This document shows positions 9,299 through 31,686 of a stretch of DNA of 35,322 bases, one piece after another (position 1 is the stretch's first letter; every line of letters begins with the position of its first letter). The stretch comes from a virus (taxonomy: Duplodnaviria > Caudoviricetes): positions 1 to 35,322 of IMG/VR virus record IMGVR_UViG_3300025392_000291; one strand, written 5' to 3'. The notes beneath the pieces were generated by a model. The model saw nothing but the letters and a program-made list of their open reading frames with translations. It did no database searches and was not told the DNA's origin. The position numbers and the translations under genes were made by a program.

Positions 9299-10288
9299 AT
9301 GACTGAAGAAACTCAACCACACGTTTTTATTGCCACGCCTATGTACGGCGGTATGTGCACAGGCGTTTATACGCAGAGCATAATGCAGCTTCAAAGCGCG
9401 TTCATTAACTCTGGTATCAGCGCCTCAATTTCTTTCATGTTCAATGAAAGCTTAATTACTCGCGCTCGTAACGCTCTTACAGCTCAATTCCTAAAATCAA
9501 ACGCAACACATTTGCTGTTCATTGATGCTGATATTCGCTTTCAAGCTCAAGACATCATCTGGATGCTTCAGGCTGACAAGGATGTGATCTGCGGTATTTA
9601 CCCAAAGAAAGAAATCAACTGGTACACAGTTGAACGTGCCGTTAAAAACAATGTGCCTGTGGATCAACTCAAGAGCCACACAGGGGCATGGGTGGTTAAT
9701 CTTGTAAACTATGCGCCTGAGATCACAGTGCCTGCCAATCAGCCTGTGGAGGTCTTTGCAGGCGGTACAGGCATGATGCTGATTAAACGTGAAGTGTTTG
9801 AAAAGCTTTCTGACAGCGTACCATCATACAAAAATGATGTTGTGGCGGTCACAGAGCTTGAAAAAGCTGGTGAGGTTATCAAAGAGTTCTTTGCGACCAG
9901 CATTGAGCCTGAAACACAGCGTCTCCTGTCAGAGGATTATCACTTCTGCCGGCTGTGGAGGCTTGCAGGGGGGCAAATATTCGCCGCCCCTTGGATGAAC
10001 TTAGGCCACGTCGGAACGTACCTATTTGAAGGCACGTTATTGTCTACGAATCAGCCTCAACAGCAGGAGCCTCAGTCAGAGGATCAACCTGCGCCACAAC
10101 TGGAGTCGGATCTGGCTCAGTCTGCTTTGCAGGGGGGTTCATCGCCATCTGAATCGACAGAGCCTTCACAGACTCAACCCGATTCGTCCAACCATGACCA
10201 AACGCCGCAAATGTTGGCAAACTTTCTAAAAAACGCATACGAGTGTCGCAAACTTTTATGGCGATTTCTTCCGGGACTTGCCCACTAA
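9299..10288 (+). CDS. GT-A fold glycosyltransferase-like protein
   Basis: VFIATPMYGG, SLITRARN, LLFIDAD (DxD), GTGMMLIKR, LSEDYHFC, LGHVG; tail overlaps endolysin antisense. Confidence 0.8.
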   Translation: MTEETQPHVFIATPMYGGMCTGVYTQSIMQLQSAFINSGISASISFMFNESLITRARNALTAQFLKSNATHLLFIDADIRFQAQDIIWMLQADKDVICGIYPKKEINWYTVERAVKNNVPVDQLKSHTGAWVVNLVNYAPEITVPANQPVEVFAGGTGMMLIKREVFEKLSDSVPSYKNDVVAVTELEKAGEVIKEFFATSIEPETQRLLSEDYHFCRLWRLAGGQIFAAPWMNLGHVGTYLFEGTLLSTNQPQQQEPQSEDQPAPQLESDLAQSALQGGSSPSESTEPSQTQPDSSNHDQTPQMLANFLKNAYECRKLLWRFLPGLAH

Positions 10289-10649
10289 TTTCTGAGAGGG
10301 TGTGGGGGCCGATTTGACCATCAGCCTCTACACCTACAGCCTGCTGTAAGAACTTTGCAGCACGTCCAACGCCTGAATTTACGGCAACATCAAATACAGC
10401 ATAATCAACGCCAGAAGGAAGGCTGTCACCATCGACAGAATCCCAATAGTTTTTTCTGTAAAGAGGTTTGACATCTTCAAGAGTAAGAGAGCGCATAGCT
10501 TCTTCATCGACTTCATGCCCCACATAAGCTTCCCACACTTTTTTGGTCACACCATGATTGGTCATGCCGCCGGGATCGCGGGGGTCATTTACAAACCCAC
10601 CTTCAGACTTCATGACTTGTTCAAAAGCTGAATCAAAATTCTCTTTCAT
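10044..10649 (-). CDS. endolysin, GH108 with peptidoglycan-binding domain
   Basis: SEGGFVNDPRDPGGMTNHGVT, FDVAVNSG, LQQAVGVEADGQIGP, FGHGWTNR. Confidence 0.92.
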   Translation of the reverse strand: MKENFDSAFEQVMKSEGGFVNDPRDPGGMTNHGVTKKVWEAYVGHEVDEEAMRSLTLEDVKPLYRKNYWDSVDGDSLPSGVDYAVFDVAVNSGVGRAAKFLQQAVGVEADGQIGPHTLSEISGQVPEEIAIKVCDTRMRFLESLPTFAAFGHGWTNRVESVKALSIQMAMNPPAKQTEPDPTPVVAQVDPLTEAPAVEADS

Positions 10650-10650
10650 G

Positions 10651-11175
10651 TTATTTCCCATTCAATGCTTGATGAATCGTATTGTCTTTACGTTGTGAAC
10701 CAGCCGATGATCCAAAGTAAAATGACATCACGCCAGTCCACGCTGTTCCAAGGGCTCCCAGCATCATTAGAAGAGCCTCTGAGCCCGATGTCGGCAATCC
10801 GTAACGTATGATGTAGAAAAGGATGCCAAAGAAACCCACAGTCACGCAAATTGACAAGGCACGAGGTATCCAATCATGCACCTGAATCTGCATTTGACGG
10901 GCGCTGTCACGATCCTGAACGGCTAATTGCTCAAGATCAATGTCCAGAGACTTCATCTGGACTTTAAAGTCAGAATCTATTTTTTTAAGCGCAGTAATCT
11001 GGTCAGGCGTTGCATTAGCAAGAGCAGCGTTAATGTCATCCTCAGAGCCATCACCATGCCCAAGCAATGCGCTAGAAATAGCTTTAACCGCCATGCCCGC
11101 CAAAGGCCCACCAAGCGCTGTTGCAATCGTAGGAGCAACCGCCCCAACCAAATCTCCAAATTTTCCAAGATTCAT
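10651..11175 (-). CDS. holin (3TM, GTA-holin-like)
   Basis: APTIATALGGPLAG, DRDSAR, two C-terminal TM helices ending FYFGSS; adjacent to endolysin. Confidence 0.75.
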   Translation of the reverse strand: MNLGKFGDLVGAVAPTIATALGGPLAGMAVKAISSALLGHGDGSEDDINAALANATPDQITALKKIDSDFKVQMKSLDIDLEQLAVQDRDSARQMQIQVHDWIPRALSICVTVGFFGILFYIIRYGLPTSGSEALLMMLGALGTAWTGVMSFYFGSSAGSQRKDNTIHQALNGK

Positions 11176-11184
11176 AACCTTCCC

Positions 11185-11640
11185 CTAACGATAAGTGAGT
11201 GCGTAATATACCATGTAAACAGTCATTGATATAGCAATCAGACTAAGACCGATCACAGTTGCTAAGAATTGATCTTCAGCCTTACGTTGCGCTGCTGCAA
11301 TCGCCTCCGCCTTCAGACGTTTACGGGTGTCAATAATTTGACGTTGCAGTTTTTCCCATTCATTCACGCCATGCTCGGCAATAACCTGATTTTTATATGC
11401 GGTGAAGATTTCTTCAGCTTCCTTCTTAGCTTGAAAAGCTTTGAGAGCTATTTCTTCCGCAGATCCATGTGATCCAAAGCCCTTGGGAGGCTCTACAGTC
11501 AATTTTGTAAGATCAGCCACGCCTTGCATAATGTCAGACAACTGCTTTGCAGTGTCCATGATGTCACGACCAAGCGCGATGGATTGTTTAATGCCTTCGT
11601 TGGCAGCTTTAATCGAAGCTAATATTGTTAGCGGGTCCAT
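11185..11640 (-). CDS. membrane-anchored coiled-coil protein in lysis region
   Basis: MDPLTILA N-terminus; C-terminal TM helix. Confidence 0.65.
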   Translation of the reverse strand: MDPLTILASIKAANEGIKQSIALGRDIMDTAKQLSDIMQGVADLTKLTVEPPKGFGSHGSAEEIALKAFQAKKEAEEIFTAYKNQVIAEHGVNEWEKLQRQIIDTRKRLKAEAIAAAQRKAEDQFLATVIGLSLIAISMTVYMVYYALTYR

Positions 11641-11663
11641 AGTAATGCCTCATGCTATGTCCC

Positions 11664-11900
11664 CTACTTATCTACTTTATTGTCAAGCTTATCAAAAATT
11701 TTGGCGACGTAGGACTCTATACGTTCCATAGTCTTATTGTATTCTTCTTTCTGGACATATTTAGTCGGAAGATCCACCTCGATCTGGTGGACATCTTGTC
11801 TCATTTCCCCAACGGCATCCCAAAGTTCTCGCGCAAACCAACCTATGACTGTCAGCACTGCGCTAAGGCCAATGTTAATAAGCGTTTGTGAATCTATCAT
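11664..11900 (-). CDS. single-TM + coiled-coil protein (lysis-associated)
   Basis: N-terminal TM; LPTKYVQKEE...KLDNKVDK; TAATG coupling. Confidence 0.7.
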   Translation of the reverse strand: MIDSQTLINIGLSAVLTVIGWFARELWDAVGEMRQDVHQIEVDLPTKYVQKEEYNKTMERIESYVAKIFDKLDNKVDK

Positions 11901-12127
11901 TACCTGCAACCCCACCGCCGACGTGCTGCTTTACCGCGTTGCCCTTTCCAAGACTTAGAACGCGCACAAAATGACTTATGCCGAGGATTCTTAGCGTCTT
12001 TCGTTGGTGCTTTAAGCTTAGATCCTGTAGCCCTGTTGTACTTTTTGCGGCCCTTCTCTGTCAGACCGCCACCAGCCTTCACAGAAAGCTTTTCACCACG
12101 TCCTACTGAGAGAGAAGGTCCAGACAT
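11900..12127 (-). CDS. small basic protein (DUF6321-like)
   Basis: GGLTEKGRKKYN..GSKLKAP...KSFCAR...ARRRWGC. Confidence 0.75.
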   Translation of the reverse strand: MSGPSLSVGRGEKLSVKAGGGLTEKGRKKYNRATGSKLKAPTKDAKNPRHKSFCARSKSWKGQRGKAARRRWGCR

Positions 12128-12936
12128 TAGTAACCTACCGGTGTTCCGTCATTAGCAATCAAATAACCACCAGCAAAAATAGATGCAGTATATGGGCCAC
12201 CTGAGCTTGCTTTGATTTGATATTGAATGTCCGTTCCAGCGGGATGAGCGACGGGAACAGTGTATGGAATTTCAAAGATTTGAACAAAAGGCGACTGGCT
12301 TAACAATGTTGTGTTGGCATTGTTAGTAAAAGTGTAACCATTCTGTGTGTAGGTCGATGTAATGTTAAACTTATTATACTCAGCAAAAGTAAAAAAGGCG
12401 CTCGATGTAAAACCGATGCTGCCGTTTGCTTGCAAATGCGCCAAATAGAATGTGTATCCATTTGGAACAGTGTAGATCGACATCTGAGTCTGACCAACAC
12501 CCGCATTGATCTGAGCATATAGAGTGCTGCTGATCTTGCCTGTAATGTTTCCAACATTGACGCCATTGGTGCAATACAATCCGTTAATACGGAAGTATGA
12601 ATTGACAGATGTAGCTGTACCAGAGCCATTCAATGTTACATTTTCGGACAAAAGATTGAAATTTGCATCCAATCCCTGAATAGCAATAGTAAGGCCAGAA
12701 TCACTCGATCCAGAAGCGCTGAGAAGCACAATCTGACCAGCCGCACTGGGGTAAGCGTATGCTCCACCAGATTGCGTCAGACCTTCCCAAGTAGGCCCAA
12801 GAGCAGTTCCGCCGACTTGAGTGCTATAGCCAAATAGCTCGACAGGCTGATGATATGGAATTTGCCCACGACCGACTTGAAGCTCAAAGGGCTCATAGCG
12901 ACCATGCTGAGACATTGAAAAGGTAGACTGAGCCAT
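12127..12936 (-). CDS. hypothetical virion-associated beta-rich protein
   Basis: 269-aa ORF coupled by TAATG on both sides; S/T/G-rich. Confidence 0.7.
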   Translation of the reverse strand: MAQSTFSMSQHGRYEPFELQVGRGQIPYHQPVELFGYSTQVGGTALGPTWEGLTQSGGAYAYPSAAGQIVLLSASGSSDSGLTIAIQGLDANFNLLSENVTLNGSGTATSVNSYFRINGLYCTNGVNVGNITGKISSTLYAQINAGVGQTQMSIYTVPNGYTFYLAHLQANGSIGFTSSAFFTFAEYNKFNITSTYTQNGYTFTNNANTTLLSQSPFVQIFEIPYTVPVAHPAGTDIQYQIKASSGGPYTASIFAGGYLIANDGTPVGY

Positions 12937-13154
12937 TAGTACACCTTTTTGTCAGGCTTAGTTGTCGGGCTGTTTTTATAATCACCAGACTTTCCAGAAT
13001 AATCCCACACAGCCGTAAACCCGCCACGAGGCGCTTTACCAGACGTAAATGTGTTTTGACCATGACCCATCGTGTTTTTGATGGTCTGGGGCTTTACTGC
13101 GACAGCAGGCCAAGCTTTATCAGTCTTGGTCTTGTTGGTTACTTTGTCCTTCAT
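12936..13154 (-). CDS. small basic hypothetical protein (72 aa)
   Basis: ATG 13154 after AAGGAG; Lys/Thr-rich. Confidence 0.6.
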   Translation of the reverse strand: MKDKVTNKTKTDKAWPAVAVKPQTIKNTMGHGQNTFTSGKAPRGGFTAVWDYSGKSGDYKNSPTTKPDKKVY

Positions 13155-13353
13155 GGCTCTTTCTCTCCTTAAGCACAGACGGGATATAAACCAGAACGGC
13201 AAACCCGCCGGCAACGGCGATGCGCTCCTGACTTGGATTGTACATCACCCAACACGCTAGGCCAAATACCATCCACAGACTGCAAATGGTCAGAATCCGA
13301 GCCGACAGCACGGTGAAGGCCGTGCGCACGATAAGCAAAACAGTAGCATCCAC
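13120..13353 (-). CDS. small two-TM membrane protein
   Basis: GTG start after GGGGA; two hydrophobic segments. Confidence 0.6.
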   Translation of the reverse strand: MDATVLLIVRTAFTVLSARILTICSLWMVFGLACWVMYNPSQERIAVAGGFAVLVYIPSVLKERKSHEGQSNQQDQD

Positions 13354-27252: not shown

Positions 27253-28263
27253 TTAGAGTGAGAGCGAGTTGTAGCCAGTGACCTTAGTCATAGACTTAGG
27301 CTTCGTGGAGACAAGCTCTGCGATGTTGAGGACAGCGCCGACGTAGCCAATTTGCCAGTTAGGCAAAGTTGACTCAAAGCCAGTGAACACGAACTGACCT
27401 TGCTCATGGATGTAGAGCGAGAGATAGTTTGTGTTGAGGAGGTACAATGTACCTTCTGGGCAGTATGGATCTGGGTAGATCGGAACGCCAGCAACCATGA
27501 GAGCGCGGAAAGCAGCTTGTGGGCCGTTTGCGTCGCCGTCAAAGCCATGACCCGGAGTAATGACATATTGTTCTTGACCAACATAATCTTGAGCAAGCAA
27601 TGTCCAAGTACCGAAGCCACAAACACCGAATGTTGGGACTTCAGCGCCCTTCTTAACAGTACCAGAAATGTACTGAAGGACGTTCTGACGGGTTGGGTTG
27701 ACGTTACCTGCGGCATAAACCTTTGACGACCACCAAGGATAAGTCGTGCGGTTAATGTTGCCGTAAGTTGCAACGGTTGTGCCATCGTCAACAGCGGCAG
27801 GCAAGCCTGTGAACTGCTGAGTGTTGCTTGTGTTGTTGTACAGCGCAGTTGCCATCGCGTCCATCATCACGTTCGTCGCGTCGTTCATACGAGCTTCGAT
27901 CAATGGGATAATTGCGTGGTCTTGTTGTACAGCGCCTTCCATGCCGAGGAATGGAACGGGAGCAATCATGAGCTTGAGATCGAACTCAGCATTGAAAGCA
28001 CCTTGCTGAACAGCAGGCTGCGAGAATGAGCCAGAATAATCTGACCATTGAGCATTAACAAATTGAGCGCCTTGAACCGGAACGGTAACAGACGAGACGC
28101 CGCCTGTTGCTGTTTGGCTATTAGCGATCAAAGCTGCCATAAGAGGAGTGCTGTTGTAGATCTGCACAACCATCTTAGGAATAAAGGCACGACGCGTAAC
28201 GTATGTAAGTTCGTTATATTGCGATGTGCCAGCGTTGGGGACTATACCGCCACCAATAGGCAT
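27253..28263 (-). CDS. major capsid protein
   Basis: 336 aa; follows scaffold; FTGL.A.VDD, YGNINR...WW, GVPIYPD..CP.GTLYLLNT; GGAG RBS. Confidence 0.85.
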   Translation of the reverse strand: MPIGGGIVPNAGTSQYNELTYVTRRAFIPKMVVQIYNSTPLMAALIANSQTATGGVSSVTVPVQGAQFVNAQWSDYSGSFSQPAVQQGAFNAEFDLKLMIAPVPFLGMEGAVQQDHAIIPLIEARMNDATNVMMDAMATALYNNTSNTQQFTGLPAAVDDGTTVATYGNINRTTYPWWSSKVYAAGNVNPTRQNVLQYISGTVKKGAEVPTFGVCGFGTWTLLAQDYVGQEQYVITPGHGFDGDANGPQAAFRALMVAGVPIYPDPYCPEGTLYLLNTNYLSLYIHEQGQFVFTGFESTLPNWQIGYVGAVLNIAELVSTKPKSMTKVTGYNSLSL

Positions 28264-28311: not shown

Positions 28312-28857
28312 CTAAAACCCAATGGGCCGTGGATTCTTCCGCAGTTCATTGAGGGCTTTGGCAGCTTCGTCGCGGGCATGGCCCACAGGATTCTTAAAAA
28401 AGCCAGATAAAGTGTTGCGAGCTTGCTCGTTCAAAACATTACGGCTTTCGAAGGCCGATGGTGTTGGAGTAGCTGCTTGCTTCATCCACTTGTAGTATTC
28501 TGCCGCAGTATCGTGATCGTGAATTTTTTTCTCAAGCATCACTTTCTCGACTTCTTCAATTTCTTCTTCAGACTGAATCTTTCCAGTCTTAAGAAGCTTT
28601 TCACGGCGTTCTTTTAAGGAATCCAATGCATCACGCTCACGGAGCTTGCCTTCAAGCTGGTCAACGCGGTTGCGTTCTTCATCCAGCTTACGAGCCATCT
28701 CATCTTTAAGGTCGATTGAATCAATAGTTAAATTCGGACGACGCTTTTTTGTGAGCCTAAGAAACGCCTCTCGGGTTTCTGGATCATCTGAGAGTTCCCT
28801 TGCAAGGAGAGCAAGTTCATCTCGGGCTTCAGGTGTTAGATCTTCGAGAGACGCCAT
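28312..28857 (-). CDS. scaffolding protein
   Basis: Highly charged coiled coil directly upstream of MCP. Confidence 0.65.
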   Translation of the reverse strand: MASLEDLTPEARDELALLARELSDDPETREAFLRLTKKRRPNLTIDSIDLKDEMARKLDEERNRVDQLEGKLRERDALDSLKERREKLLKTGKIQSEEEIEEVEKVMLEKKIHDHDTAAEYYKWMKQAATPTPSAFESRNVLNEQARNTLSGFFKNPVGHARDEAAKALNELRKNPRPIGF

Positions 28858-28877: not shown

Positions 28878-29066
28878 TTAGATAACTTTTTTGCCGTCGC
28901 CGGGAGGAACAATCTTATAAATATTGTTCGCAGCGGTCTTTTTAGGGCCAGAAAGCCCACCGAACCGGTCATAGCGAGGTGTATTGGTGATTTGACCATT
29001 TTGTTGCTGGTCTGTGGTTGGATTACGAACCGTACCAGCGCCACGAGGCTTAAATAATTGAGACAT
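28878..29066 (-). CDS. small basic hypothetical head protein (62 aa)
   Basis: ATG 29066 after GGGAG RBS. Confidence 0.65.
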   Translation of the reverse strand: MSQLFKPRGAGTVRNPTTDQQQNGQITNTPRYDRFGGLSGPKKTAANNIYKIVPPGDGKKVI

Positions 29067-29067
29067 C

Positions 29068-29571
29068 TTAGGCTCCCATTGGGGGTGTTGGACCAGCGGG
29101 CGGAGCGCCTGCGGGCATTGGGGGTTGTGCGCCCATTGGACCACCAGCGGGAGCTGGAGGAGGCGCGTTCATCAAACCAAGATTAGGAGGTGCACCTTGC
29201 ATCATCTTTGATGCAGGAGTACCGCCACCAGCTTGAGGAAGATTTTGAAGAAGCTGCATAATTTCAGCTTGCTGAAGCTCATCAGTGCGGGCTTTCTTCT
29301 TGCCAACAAGCGCTGTGAGTGAAGATAAAGCCGACATGACCTTTTTACCTTCGTCGGTTTCAGATCCTAATGCCGGGAGAGTCTGCTCAAGAAGGTCAAG
29401 AGCCATGCTCACATTGACCAGAGCTGCTTCTTTTTTGCCATCTTTAGGCTCAGGCGTTGCCATTGGTGCTGACAGTGGAGGTTGTGACGCAGTCATAGGT
29501 ACGCCGGTCTCTCCAGCGAGATCTGGAGCGCCGCCACCTTGCATTAAAGCCATAATATCTGCATCAGCCAT
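29068..29571 (-). CDS. Pro/Gly/Met-rich hypothetical head-cluster protein
   Basis: AGGTG RBS; helical core with low-complexity ends. Confidence 0.7.
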   Translation of the reverse strand: MADADIMALMQGGGAPDLAGETGVPMTASQPPLSAPMATPEPKDGKKEAALVNVSMALDLLEQTLPALGSETDEGKKVMSALSSLTALVGKKKARTDELQQAEIMQLLQNLPQAGGGTPASKMMQGAPPNLGLMNAPPPAPAGGPMGAQPPMPAGAPPAGPTPPMGA

Positions 29572-29623
29572 TTAACACCTGTTATATGCACCAAATAACA
29601 CACAAAATGTGTTAATTGTAAAG

Positions 29624-29664
29624 TGAGGGGTAGTTTTTTATTCGGTCCCGCCCCTCATCAGGAC
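29624..29664 (-). ncRNA. predicted H-type RNA pseudoknot
   Basis: GUCCUG-A-UGAGGGG-CGGGAC-CGAAUAAAAAACUA-CCCCUCA: S1 6 bp, L1 1 nt, S2 7 bp, A-rich L3. Confidence 0.55.
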
Positions 29665-29696
29665 AGCGCAGTAAACGGGGCTAACCCGTTTATTAG

Positions 29697-29729
29697 TTAG
29701 CGCTTTGCCTTACGACCCTTGCGACGCAT
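29697..29729 (-). CDS. 10-aa basic micropeptide MRRKGRKAKR
   Basis: GGAGG 5 nt before ATG; TAA stop; paralogous to the neighbouring micro-ORF. Confidence 0.7.
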   Translation of the reverse strand: MRRKGRKAKR

Positions 29730-29786
29730 GAACGCCTCCATAGTTAGAATTAAGGATTGGGCGGATGAGCTTACCCCCCGAAGGGA

Positions 29787-29819
29787 TTAGCGCTTATGCT
29801 TACGAGACTTACGAGCCAT
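29787..29819 (-). CDS. 10-aa basic micropeptide MARKSRKHKR
   Basis: GGAGG 6 nt before ATG; TAA stop followed by a C(UUCG)G hairpin. Confidence 0.7.
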   Translation of the reverse strand: MARKSRKHKR

Positions 29820-29856
29820 TGATGGCCTCCATACGTTAAAACGTCCCCAAAACTTT

Positions 29857-29901
29857 TTAGTACCGCTTGCCGCGCCGTGAGCGCTTCATTGACTTGTACA
29901 T
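29857..29901 (-). CDS. 14-aa basic micropeptide MYKSMKRSRRGKRY
   Basis: GAGGT 5 nt before ATG, overlapping the upstream stop codon. Confidence 0.6.
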   Translation of the reverse strand: MYKSMKRSRRGKRY

Positions 29902-29909
29902 TTGACACC

Positions 29910-30074
29910 TCAATAACGCCGTGGTTGGCGAGAATAGGATCGTATGTTTGTACCCGGCGTAGACTGCCGAATATTTGACACACGGTAATCCATAGTAGGG
30001 CTTTTCACGTCTTGCGTCAATTGTCGTGTATCTGCACGAGGTTGGTCACCAACTGTGACTTGTCCTTTAGCCAT
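29910..30074 (-). CDS. 54-aa basic protein MAKGQVTVGDQPRADTRQLTQDVKSPTMDYRVSNIRQSTPGTNIRSYSRQPRRY
   Basis: Start overlaps the portal 3' end; AAGGA upstream; Arg-rich tail. Confidence 0.65.
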   Translation of the reverse strand: MAKGQVTVGDQPRADTRQLTQDVKSPTMDYRVSNIRQSTPGTNIRSYSRQPRRY

Positions 30075-31686
30075 GTTTCTTATCCTTTGCAGGCATGGGC
30101 GTTACATTTCCGCCACCTTGAGGATGATTTTGCTCTGCTTTCTTAAGCCGTTCAAGAAGTTGTTGCTTCATGGGCGGATCGAGCAATTCGATCAGGCTTT
30201 CTTTGTCGATTGCGCCAGCTTTAAACATATTAAAAGCGAGGGAGCGCATATCTTCCATAAAGATCGGGCTGTTTGAGTGCGCGTCAACTTTGACCATATA
30301 ATTCTTGGTAAATTGGTCAGCAATGAACGGCGTTCCATCAATATCTTTGTAATGAGTGTTGTCGTAAGCCTGAATTAGCTTCATGTAGAGAGACGACATC
30401 TTTTCCAAAGCATCTTCAATGTTAAGAGCACGCTTTTTAGCTCGGCTTGAACCGAGTCGCGCAAGCTGGGAGGCGTGACCAGCAGATCTGACGCCTTGCT
30501 CGCCTTTTCCTGACAATACGTTGTTAATGCCTGAAGCTTCTTCAAACATAGCGTCAATTTGGTCGAGTTGAGCATAAAGATCCTGAGGCAATTGAGGAGC
30601 CAAACGCTCGGCTTTAACGCCGGGCATATCAGACGACAGCAAGCCACCCGGACGATTAAGCGCAAAGTCTTTTTCATCCAAAATGCCTGTAAACCCTGAC
30701 AAAAGGGTCGGCGGCGAGACTTGTTTTGACAAAAGCTCAAGAATTTCATTCATGCGCTGGTTGCGGGCGTCCTGCAAAAACATGAGGCGCGAGACTTCAG
30801 ATTGGCCCCAGTAATAATCAGGCATGGGGTTAGGGCAAACCTGAATGAAAGGTGATTCGCCCTTAATGAACATTTCCTCATTGGCGCGGTCATAAATGAC
30901 GACTTGAGGATCGGCTGTTGTCACGACTTGATAGTCTTGGGTTTCATCGTTCCAGACATACAATTCGCACATCTCAACGGTTTCTTCCTCAACCTTGGCC
31001 TTCATGCGGTTATAGCCGTAAAGGTCCATATTGACTGTGCCGTACATCGTGGGATCAACAGCCGAGAGCACAATACGATCAACGCCATCGGGCACATATT
31101 GAGGCTCATGCGCGGTCGTCTGAATCCGCCGCACAATTGAATCACGGTTGGGATGGGCGTAAAGGCGAGCGTAGAGATCTGATTTGGTGATGTAATACCA
31201 GTGCACAAAAGCTTCTTGCCGGTCGGTATAGGCAATGTCCTCGCGCAACACACCAAAATTGGCTGGATCAACATAGTATGGGTTAATTGTGGAGTTATGC
31301 ACAATTAATTTTACAAAGGCCGAGTCATAGACCAATGACCATACGAGGGCTTGCTCAAACACGCGGTCAGCGTTGGAATGATTCCATTCTTCGTTAAGTG
31401 CTTGAGATAGCCGAGGAATTTTCTTGTATTCAGCTTCAGGGGCCGACGCGCCGAGGTTAATGGTAAAGCGCGTTGAGTCGGCGGAATAAAGAAAGGACAC
31501 AAGCTGGTCAATATGAGGGTAGATCTTGTTGTAAAGGGCCGGGGACTTTTCAGGCCCAGACCCAAATGAATAATAAGATCTCAATGACTGGTAATCGGCC
31601 CGACGTGTCTCACGAGAGGTCTGGCATTTGCGGATGAGATCGAGATAAAAATTTTCTCGGTCATCGAGATTTCTTGGAATTCTCAT
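30067..31686 (-). CDS. portal protein
   Basis: 539 aa between TerL and scaffold; YNKIYPHID, SPFIQV...YYWGQSEV, EEASGI..VLSG podoviral portal pattern. Confidence 0.8.
   Translation of the reverse strand: MRIPRNLDDRENFYLDLIRKCQTSRETRRADYQSLRSYYSFGSGPEKSPALYNKIYPHIDQLVSFLYSADSTRFTINLGASAPEAEYKKIPRLSQALNEEWNHSNADRVFEQALVWSLVYDSAFVKLIVHNSTINPYYVDPANFGVLREDIAYTDRQEAFVHWYYITKSDLYARLYAHPNRDSIVRRIQTTAHEPQYVPDGVDRIVLSAVDPTMYGTVNMDLYGYNRMKAKVEEETVEMCELYVWNDETQDYQVVTTADPQVVIYDRANEEMFIKGESPFIQVCPNPMPDYYWGQSEVSRLMFLQDARNQRMNEILELLSKQVSPPTLLSGFTGILDEKDFALNRPGGLLSSDMPGVKAERLAPQLPQDLYAQLDQIDAMFEEASGINNVLSGKGEQGVRSAGHASQLARLGSSRAKKRALNIEDALEKMSSLYMKLIQAYDNTHYKDIDGTPFIADQFTKNYMVKVDAHSNSPIFMEDMRSLAFNMFKAGAIDKESLIELLDPPMKQQLLERLKKAEQNHPQGGGNVTPMPAKDKKHG

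Follow-up and report, generated by a model that had tools for sequence, protein, structure and literature searches.

We observed that the micro-genes lying between the portal gene and the scaffold/capsid block of this phage are, as far as sequence comparison can tell, a real, ancient and unannotated class of polycation genes. In the window, that is, the whole 35,322-bp stretch of DNA analysed here, three RBS-led micro-ORFs (14, 10 and 10 aa; net charge +7, +6 and +7) were found on the minus strand in this position. We propose that their products may be mass-produced polycations, gene-encoded polyamine substitutes partly neutralising the DNA in the filling capsid, a reading to which we give an even chance of being right.

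The micro-genes and their surroundings

The window is a complete-looking virus record whose minus strand carries genes for terminase, an SU10/P22-like portal, an adaptor and the capsid. The capsid search recovered 2,753 homologues, which places the phage in a large, abundant family of uncultured tailed phages, and named relatives were obtained from a spring, lake MAGs and lake metatranscriptomes. Only three MAG contigs carried relatives (two in beta-proteobacterial bins, one Terrimicrobiaceae), and a prophage state was shown in none of the three. Elsewhere in the window, an ArdC-type anti-restriction/MPTase-PolyVal gene was noticed at 279-1130, and a GH108 endolysin with holin-like neighbours at 10044-11915, near which no spanin genes were recognised by Pfam or by eye. 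The head-cluster features, in coding order, are as follows.

30067..31686, minus strand: portal protein gene, 539 aa, upstream neighbour (PHROG portal matches; Pfam SU10_portal, E 7e-13)
29910..30074, minus strand: gene of a 54-aa conserved small protein with a D-Q-P-R + Y-R motif and a basic tail, overlapping the portal stop
29907..29911, minus strand: RBS of micropeptide A, GAGGT, spacing 5 nt, overlapping the stop of the 54-aa gene
29857..29901, minus strand: micropeptide A gene, MYKSMKRSRRGKRY, 14 aa, K+R 7, 1.85 kDa, Tyr-bearing class (pN/pS 0.21)
29826..29830, minus strand: RBS of micropeptide B, GGAGG, spacing 6 nt
29787..29819, minus strand: micropeptide B gene, MARKSRKHKR, 10 aa, K+R 6, 1.30 kDa
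29735..29739, minus strand: RBS of micropeptide C, GGAGG, spacing 5 nt
29697..29729, minus strand: micropeptide C gene, MRRKGRKAKR, 10 aa, K+R 7, 1.29 kDa
29068..29571, minus strand: gene of a 167-aa Pro/Gly-rich conserved protein, downstream neighbour
28878..29066, minus strand: gene of a 62-aa conserved basic protein, net +7
28312..28857, minus strand: candidate scaffold protein gene, 181 aa (from position and charge; no family match)
27253..28263, minus strand: major capsid protein gene, 336 aa, net -7 (phrog_9953, E 4e-37)

Without Met, the calculated masses of A, B and C are 1.72, 1.17 and 1.16 kDa. A search of both strands of the 35 kb window for RBS-led, acid-free ORFs of 6-30 aa and at least 45% K/R gave micropeptides A, B and C and no others, and 100 order-3 Markov simulations gave a mean of 0.07 such ORFs per window, with a maximum of two. 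The preliminary description of this DNA had reported a gap holding a 54-aa ORF followed by three R/K-rich micro-ORFs, and the coordinates, RBSs and simulations agree with it. The M-x-RK-x-RK-x-KR-TAA pattern and the TAAC(G)TATGGAGGC leader that it attributed to both 10-mers are present in the sequence, as is their exclusive use of CGT, CGC and AAG for Arg and Lys, and folding predicts the hairpin that it placed after each of them. Well-spaced GGAGG or GAGGT RBSs were confirmed for the three micropeptides (5-6 nt) and not for the 54-aa ORF, which has AAGGA. Its expectation that gene callers would miss every ORF of the gap is true of the micropeptides, which were missed in both annotated relatives, where antisense ORFs are annotated over them; the 54-aa ORF is called, being in the protein collection and annotated in MW202753. 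An upstream ATG in the ATGGAGG leader, leading to a 14-aa form of C or a 7-aa out-of-frame ORF, was discarded, as it has no RBS and is not conserved. Lake metatranscriptomes were likewise set aside as expression evidence: three runs contained 7-9% of the words, and contigs show neither strand nor level. One 156-nt metatranscriptome contig of depth 3 matches 29736-29891 exactly, and the other head genes are equally thin.

The 54-aa gene encodes a separate conserved protein and is not protamine-like. Its product carries 4 acidic residues (net +6), M1, D10, Q11, P12, Y30 and R49 are invariant in 17 sequences, and the gene is retained in lineages without micropeptides; no match was found in Pfam, PHROG or Atlas. 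The 167-aa protein matched no PHROG or Pfam family. The 62-aa basic protein, also without a family, shows strongly conserved motifs even in clades at 50% capsid identity. The 181-aa product is probably the scaffold protein, judging from its position and charge. The major capsid gene uses only CGT and CGC for Arg and only AAG for Lys, and its product, which is unusually conserved (85-94% identity at a portal identity of 60-75%), carries few charged residues (14 K/R, 21 D/E). In the cultured Stenotrophomonas phage BUCT555 (L302:4053-4211), a 52-aa basic protein directly follows the portal-position gene and is a possible positional analogue.

Coding evidence, distribution and loss

The portal search covered 80 loci and two GenBank phages, and 64 of these had a complete portal-downstream gap, a number that includes the window itself and six near-identical contigs. 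Intact micro-gene copies were found in 63 of the 64 gaps (three copies in 35, two in 24, one in 4), and the remaining gap holds a copy with ATA instead of ATG. One further locus, L031, was left out of this count because of an insertion, though it holds all three copies; the insertion of about 860 bp (L031:2944-3801) lies between the portal and the 54-aa gene, and despite it the 54-aa and 167-aa genes still accompany the cassette. Across 72 distinct genes, pN/pS came to 0.21 in the Tyr-bearing class (109 pairs); the other class, in which paralogues were mixed, gave 0.48 (170 pairs). Codon entropy of class A reached 1.41 bits at the third position versus 0.56 and 0.37 bits at the other two, in 75 sequences picked by their C-terminal motif; the entropy of class B is partly set by the search pattern. 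All 206 distinct micro-genes have their own RBS, start and stop, and RBS spacing peaks at 6 nt (109/206) in this set, for which an RBS was required and its spacing was not narrowly fixed. The stop codon is TAA in 224 of 240.

From the synonymous-biased variation, the near-absence of Asp and Glu and the retention of a basic-basic-small repeat, we conclude that the micro-ORFs are protein-coding genes, real and selected. Frame, RBS and basicity are thus conserved across the relatives' portal-downstream regions, with varying copy number, and the earlier suggestion of real micro-genes of the highly expressed type is well supported by conservation, synonymous bias, the 6-nt RBS peak, capsid-like codons and fixed place.

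Among 131 distinct peptides (1,576 residues), length ranges from 10 to 22 aa with a median of 13, and charge from +6 to +12. Lys and Arg make up 64% of residues (R 35.5%, K 28.7%), Phe and Ile together 0.2%, and Leu, Trp and Gln are absent. The reported lack of acidic residues applies strictly in the window and nearly so in the relatives' peptides, with 0.1% Asp and no Glu. Basic runs of exactly two number 394 of 503, compared with 113 in shuffles, whereas runs of three (51) and of four or more (4) are few, and the spacers between the basic pairs are G, A, S, T, H or Y, giving the basic-basic-small repeat. The term protamine-like, used in the preliminary description, therefore fails in detail, since the basic residues are paired, Lys almost equals Arg in frequency and the 54-aa gene encodes a protein of its own. 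Arg and Lys codons match those of the capsid gene, Arg being CGC or CGT. The order of R and K is well kept within clades, and the peptide sequence otherwise drifts freely across clades.

When 2.9 million viral contigs were scanned with the DNA pattern of a single peptide class, at least 120 loci were returned. Among the matches listed, all 80 long viral loci lie beside the portal and/or downstream head genes, one of the 40 short ones (L205) is an unrelated chance match, and 77 of the first 80 metagenome loci have the same head-gene context, the other 3 being RBS-less chance matches. In distant clades (capsid 47-72% and portal about 30-54% identical; GC 46-68%), a micro-gene was found in 25 of 31 loci, including every one of the 24 with the portal inside the fetched flank, where it lies upstream of the capsid gene. 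The 386 kb searched as a control, of which 106 kb lay past the capsid gene and 280 kb came from the reverse strand, contained no micro-gene. Five annotated phages at 25-34% capsid identity, including Mx8, Mx9 and BUCT555, have no convincing micro-gene between portal and capsid, only doubtful GTG frames. In some distant clades (L212, L214 and also L215), the micro-gene has extra Arg-rich ORFs of 33-40 aa after it or in its vicinity, and the 22-aa micropeptide of L212 is absent from the 15-billion protein collection.

Natural losses, overlooked in the preliminary description, were also detected. The capsid search gave 42 near-clade loci in which the portal end is visible: 30 carry canonical peptides, 2 carry longer K/M/P-rich variants and 10 carry none. 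In those of the last group that were checked, the 54-aa gene is followed by a terminator or immediately by the next gene. The two variants (L245 and L277; 21-25 aa) lie some 175-255 nt beyond the portal stop and stand in for the canonical peptide in the sister group of a lineage with loss; they are possibly a decayed or an alternative form. On a capsid tree of 116 rows, made by a quick method and with many open forks, absence needs two changes, and together with the presence of the gene in distant clades this implies at least two losses. Since ten loci in at least two lineages do without them, the micro-genes are dispensable and their role is accessory. Copy number over 166 distinct gaps was 0 in 10, 1 in 19, 2 in 111 and 3 in 26, a set biased to presence by the inclusion of pattern-found loci and in which one case of three (L037) is a nested frame. 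Lineages without peptides show no compensating change of net charge in the capsid, scaffold or 62-aa protein; their 167-aa protein is more acidic.

RNA structures at the locus

Three local structures were recognised in the window.

29768..29793, minus strand: predicted hairpin at the stop of B (from folding only; differs among relatives)
29665..29704, minus strand: conserved hairpin enclosing the stop of C, whose last Arg codon is paired downstream (15 distinct sequences folded)
29624..29664, minus strand: H-type pseudoknot PK2 with an A-rich loop 3 (stems 29664-29659/29650-29645 and 29657-29651/29630-29624)

The whole 29697-30074 region folds no better than its shuffles (z -0.68), the structures being local. 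In the hairpin at C, the window has CGC/GCG pairing versus CGG/CCG in relatives. The PK2 descriptor matched 77 of 120 distinct regions, about ten of them chance matches elsewhere when judged by eye, versus 41 of 360 shuffles, and both stems change in step among relatives; some relatives have a plain hairpin in its place, and in some PK2 stands directly before the next RBS. A second, 39-nt H-type pseudoknot, PK1, was found upstream of the micro-gene RBS in L086 (2443-2483) and 66 other loci (alignment A2), and in 119 of 121 pattern loci the RBS follows it directly. In PK1, 95% of cells are paired and 7 of 12 pairs show two-sided changes; none of 500 shuffles scored as high and slid controls were all lower, a test in which the structure was drawn from the tested sequences themselves and relatedness inflates the shuffle comparison. 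Its tandem U-G/G-U pairs are invariant in 67 of 67 sequences. PK1 could serve as a stabiliser, a protein site or a ligand sensor. The PK1 model found no match in the window or its clade, nor in distant clades except weak ones in L234 and L235.

Rfam gave no match in the window at E<=10 and none at gathering score in 12 loci; a U7 hit at L086 (E 3.7, opposite strand) was rejected as a chance match. Judged by their alignments, PK1 and PK2 are both covarying pseudoknots; neither has an Rfam match, and both had been overlooked in the preliminary description. TTGAC occurs within 130 nt downstream in 98 of 119 regions, and 40 show the complete spacing of a promoter-like site. In the window itself no promoter was found after PK2, and no terminator-like site was found on the coding strand; the hairpin and pseudoknot stand there instead. 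Dedicated micro-gene promoters in distant clades, suggested by TTGAC-like hexamers seen by eye, were discarded when a consensus scan found none upstream in 4 of 4 loci; terminator-like hairpins follow the micro-gene in 2 of 4 distant loci scanned. An inverted repeat, TAACACA...TGTGTTA, was seen at 29587-29606, between PK2 and the 167-aa gene, where relatives have different hairpins.

Proposed function, alternatives and known systems

Conservation of charge and spacing only, 0-3 copies, capsid-like codons, a place in the head cluster and stable RNA folds suggest a bulk, non-specific nucleic-acid ligand made late, and free sequence drift with variable copy number suits such a ligand; for this reason the gene-encoded polyamine substitute is the reading that we favour. 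The micro-genes would be transcribed late together with the portal gene; the 3' PK2, and in most relatives the 5' PK1, would lend stability to a short mRNA and so allow repeated translation of the frames; and the peptides would partition to DNA entering the porous procapsid and be kept after maturation. Partial cancelling of charge could then ease packaging or stabilise virions in dilute water. By calculation, about 1,050 peptides would cancel 10% of the 70,644 genome phosphates and 5,270 would cancel half. A DNA-neutralising role is plausible from position, composition and copy-number variation. With somewhat less than even confidence, we further suggest that these phages make a ribosomal polyamine substitute from a pseudoknot-protected mini-mRNA, with thousands of peptides per capsid tuning DNA pressure and escaping both gene callers and tryptic proteomics. 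The micro-genes might on that account, again a little short of evenly balanced, rank among the shortest conserved stand-alone genes.

Several observations count against this role. Ten loci lack the genes without charge compensation, and no convincing micro-gene was found in the five phages at 25-34% capsid identity. Condensing polycations slow or stall packaging motors in vitro. The peptides have no capsid-targeting signal, and a head-cluster position speaks for late expression and not for destination, both of which weigh against a role in the virion. Moreover, the R/K order is kept within clades beyond the needs of a counter-ion, which hints at a specific partner and argues against a pure counter-ion.

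It is unlikely, though not negligibly so, that the peptides act in the cytoplasm, where they would coat or condense the phage's replicated DNA or else the host's DNA, RNA or ribosomes. Such coating might, with similarly low probability, gather genomes and procapsids or shield DNA from late-acting host nucleases or sensors. The same chemistry would serve there, the peptides carry no capsid-binding tail, patchy loss fits a host-dependent benefit and the phage also has the ArdC-type anti-restriction gene; nevertheless, the place beside the portal is fixed over capsid divergence to 47%, whereas defence genes usually move and turn over.

We consider it rather improbable that the peptides are specific, arginine-rich-motif-like RNA ligands of PK1 and PK2, forming a small RNP that would regulate the switch into the scaffold/capsid operon or help head assembly. 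The invariant U-G/G-U pairs and two-sided changes of PK1, its place just before the RBS, the plain terminator that replaces it in lineages without peptides and the conserved R/K order all point that way; in the window's clade and the most distant clades, however, peptides of this class are encoded with no PK1 beside them, and a regulator needs no three near-identical copies. Envelope weakening, either at lysis as a spanin substitute or on release at infection, is very unlikely. No spanin was recognised near the GH108 endolysin and a cationic lysis peptide is known in phiKT, but that peptide, gp28, is described as 56 aa long, amphipathic and membrane-bound (bioRxiv 10.1101/515445), whereas the micropeptides are almost without hydrophobic residues and their genes lie about 19 kb from the endolysin.

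We give scant probability to the frames being cis-acting leader ORFs, whose translation would sense Arg/Lys supply or polyamines and tune read-through into the capsid operon, with the peptides as by-products. The last codon and stop of C do lie inside the conserved hairpin abutting PK2, which in some relatives directly precedes the next RBS, yet the frequent codons, R/K swaps and kept triad spacing indicate selection on the product, the downstream TTGAC in 98 of 119 regions suggests a separate promoter, and terminator-like hairpins follow the gene in half of the four distant loci scanned. It is extremely improbable that the frames go untranslated, as by-products of a structured non-coding RNA: real RNA structures overlap and flank them, but the third-position entropy of class A, the RBS spacing, the TAA stops and the recurrence of this peptide type in distant clades whose RNA flanks are unrelated all oppose it.

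With reference to known systems, the usual view is that tailed phages depend on host Mg2+ and polyamines to balance the charge of the DNA that their motors pack, whereas animal viruses and ssDNA phages are known to have basic core peptides. Protamines and baculovirus P6.9, which condense DNA, are longer, with long Arg clusters and Arg far above Lys; microvirus J, from an ssDNA phage, has a fixed 60 copies, is longer and bears a hydrophobic capsid anchor. The micropeptides resemble protamines and P6.9, as these are generally described, in being small, Arg-rich and nearly acid-free, and differ in their rarity of runs of four or more basics and in having almost as much Lys as Arg. In phiX174, J is a small basic protein encoded beside the capsid gene, located inside the capsid and involved in packaging (PMC11945456); the micropeptides, known from their genes, share with it, as outlined in that source, a small basic phage product encoded in the head-gene neighbourhood, and differ in having no hydrophobic anchor and in belonging to motor-packaged dsDNA terminase/portal phages. 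Adenovirus Mu (protein X) is a 19-aa basic peptide of 100-300 copies per virion that helps condense the genome and is cut from a 79-aa precursor by protease (PMC7998265). Like Mu as described there, the micropeptides are very short basic peptides in a dsDNA virus, in their case with a putative place in the virion; unlike that processed animal-virus peptide, they have their own RBS, start and stop, are also Lys-rich and are multi-copy, and no homology is implied.

Phages such as T4 and R17 package polyamines to neutralise genome charge (PMC7226272), and the role proposed here for the micropeptides is similar to what that source outlines; polyamines are host metabolites of +2 to +4, in contrast to these phage-encoded, ribosome-made products of +6 to +12. 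SPP1 gp7 is a DNA-binding, dispensable internal head protein encoded after the portal that raises infectivity (PMC6316719), and T4 internal proteins are dispensable internal head proteins too (PMC9958956). The micropeptides share dispensability with them and may share a virion location, but are micropeptides, unlike these folded, portal- or scaffold-core-targeted proteins as characterised in the two sources, and gp7, on the same description, is a better positional analogue for the 54-aa gene. The phiKT disruptin gp28 is a lysis factor (bioRxiv 10.1101/515445) and, like the micropeptides, a phage-encoded cationic peptide; from its account there, they differ in length (10-22 aa) and in having no hydrophobic face. 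Membership of the protamine, Mu, microvirus J and disruptin classes was consequently rejected, the defining features of each being missing. The peptide strings occur in no paper of the library searched, and no listed paper describes such genes in its title or the beginning of its abstract; the catalogues of GMSC, which according to its paper calls ORFs from 30 nt (PMC11364881), and of Fremin et al. 2022 may list the ORFs unannotated.

If the polyamine-substitute reading is true, the picture of dsDNA phage heads would gain, for an abundant family, a missing component in the form of a conserved 10-mer polycation with its own gene, one invisible to standard annotation and trypsin-based proteomics. 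Synthetic micropeptides make the polycation role testable at once in existing packaging and ejection assays, and the locus offers natural variants of 0-3 copies for comparison together with the two covarying pseudoknot motifs outside Rfam. Two more small basic proteins were noticed in the late region of the window, at 11900-12127 (DUF6321, 75 aa) and 12936-13214 (a 92-aa ORF).
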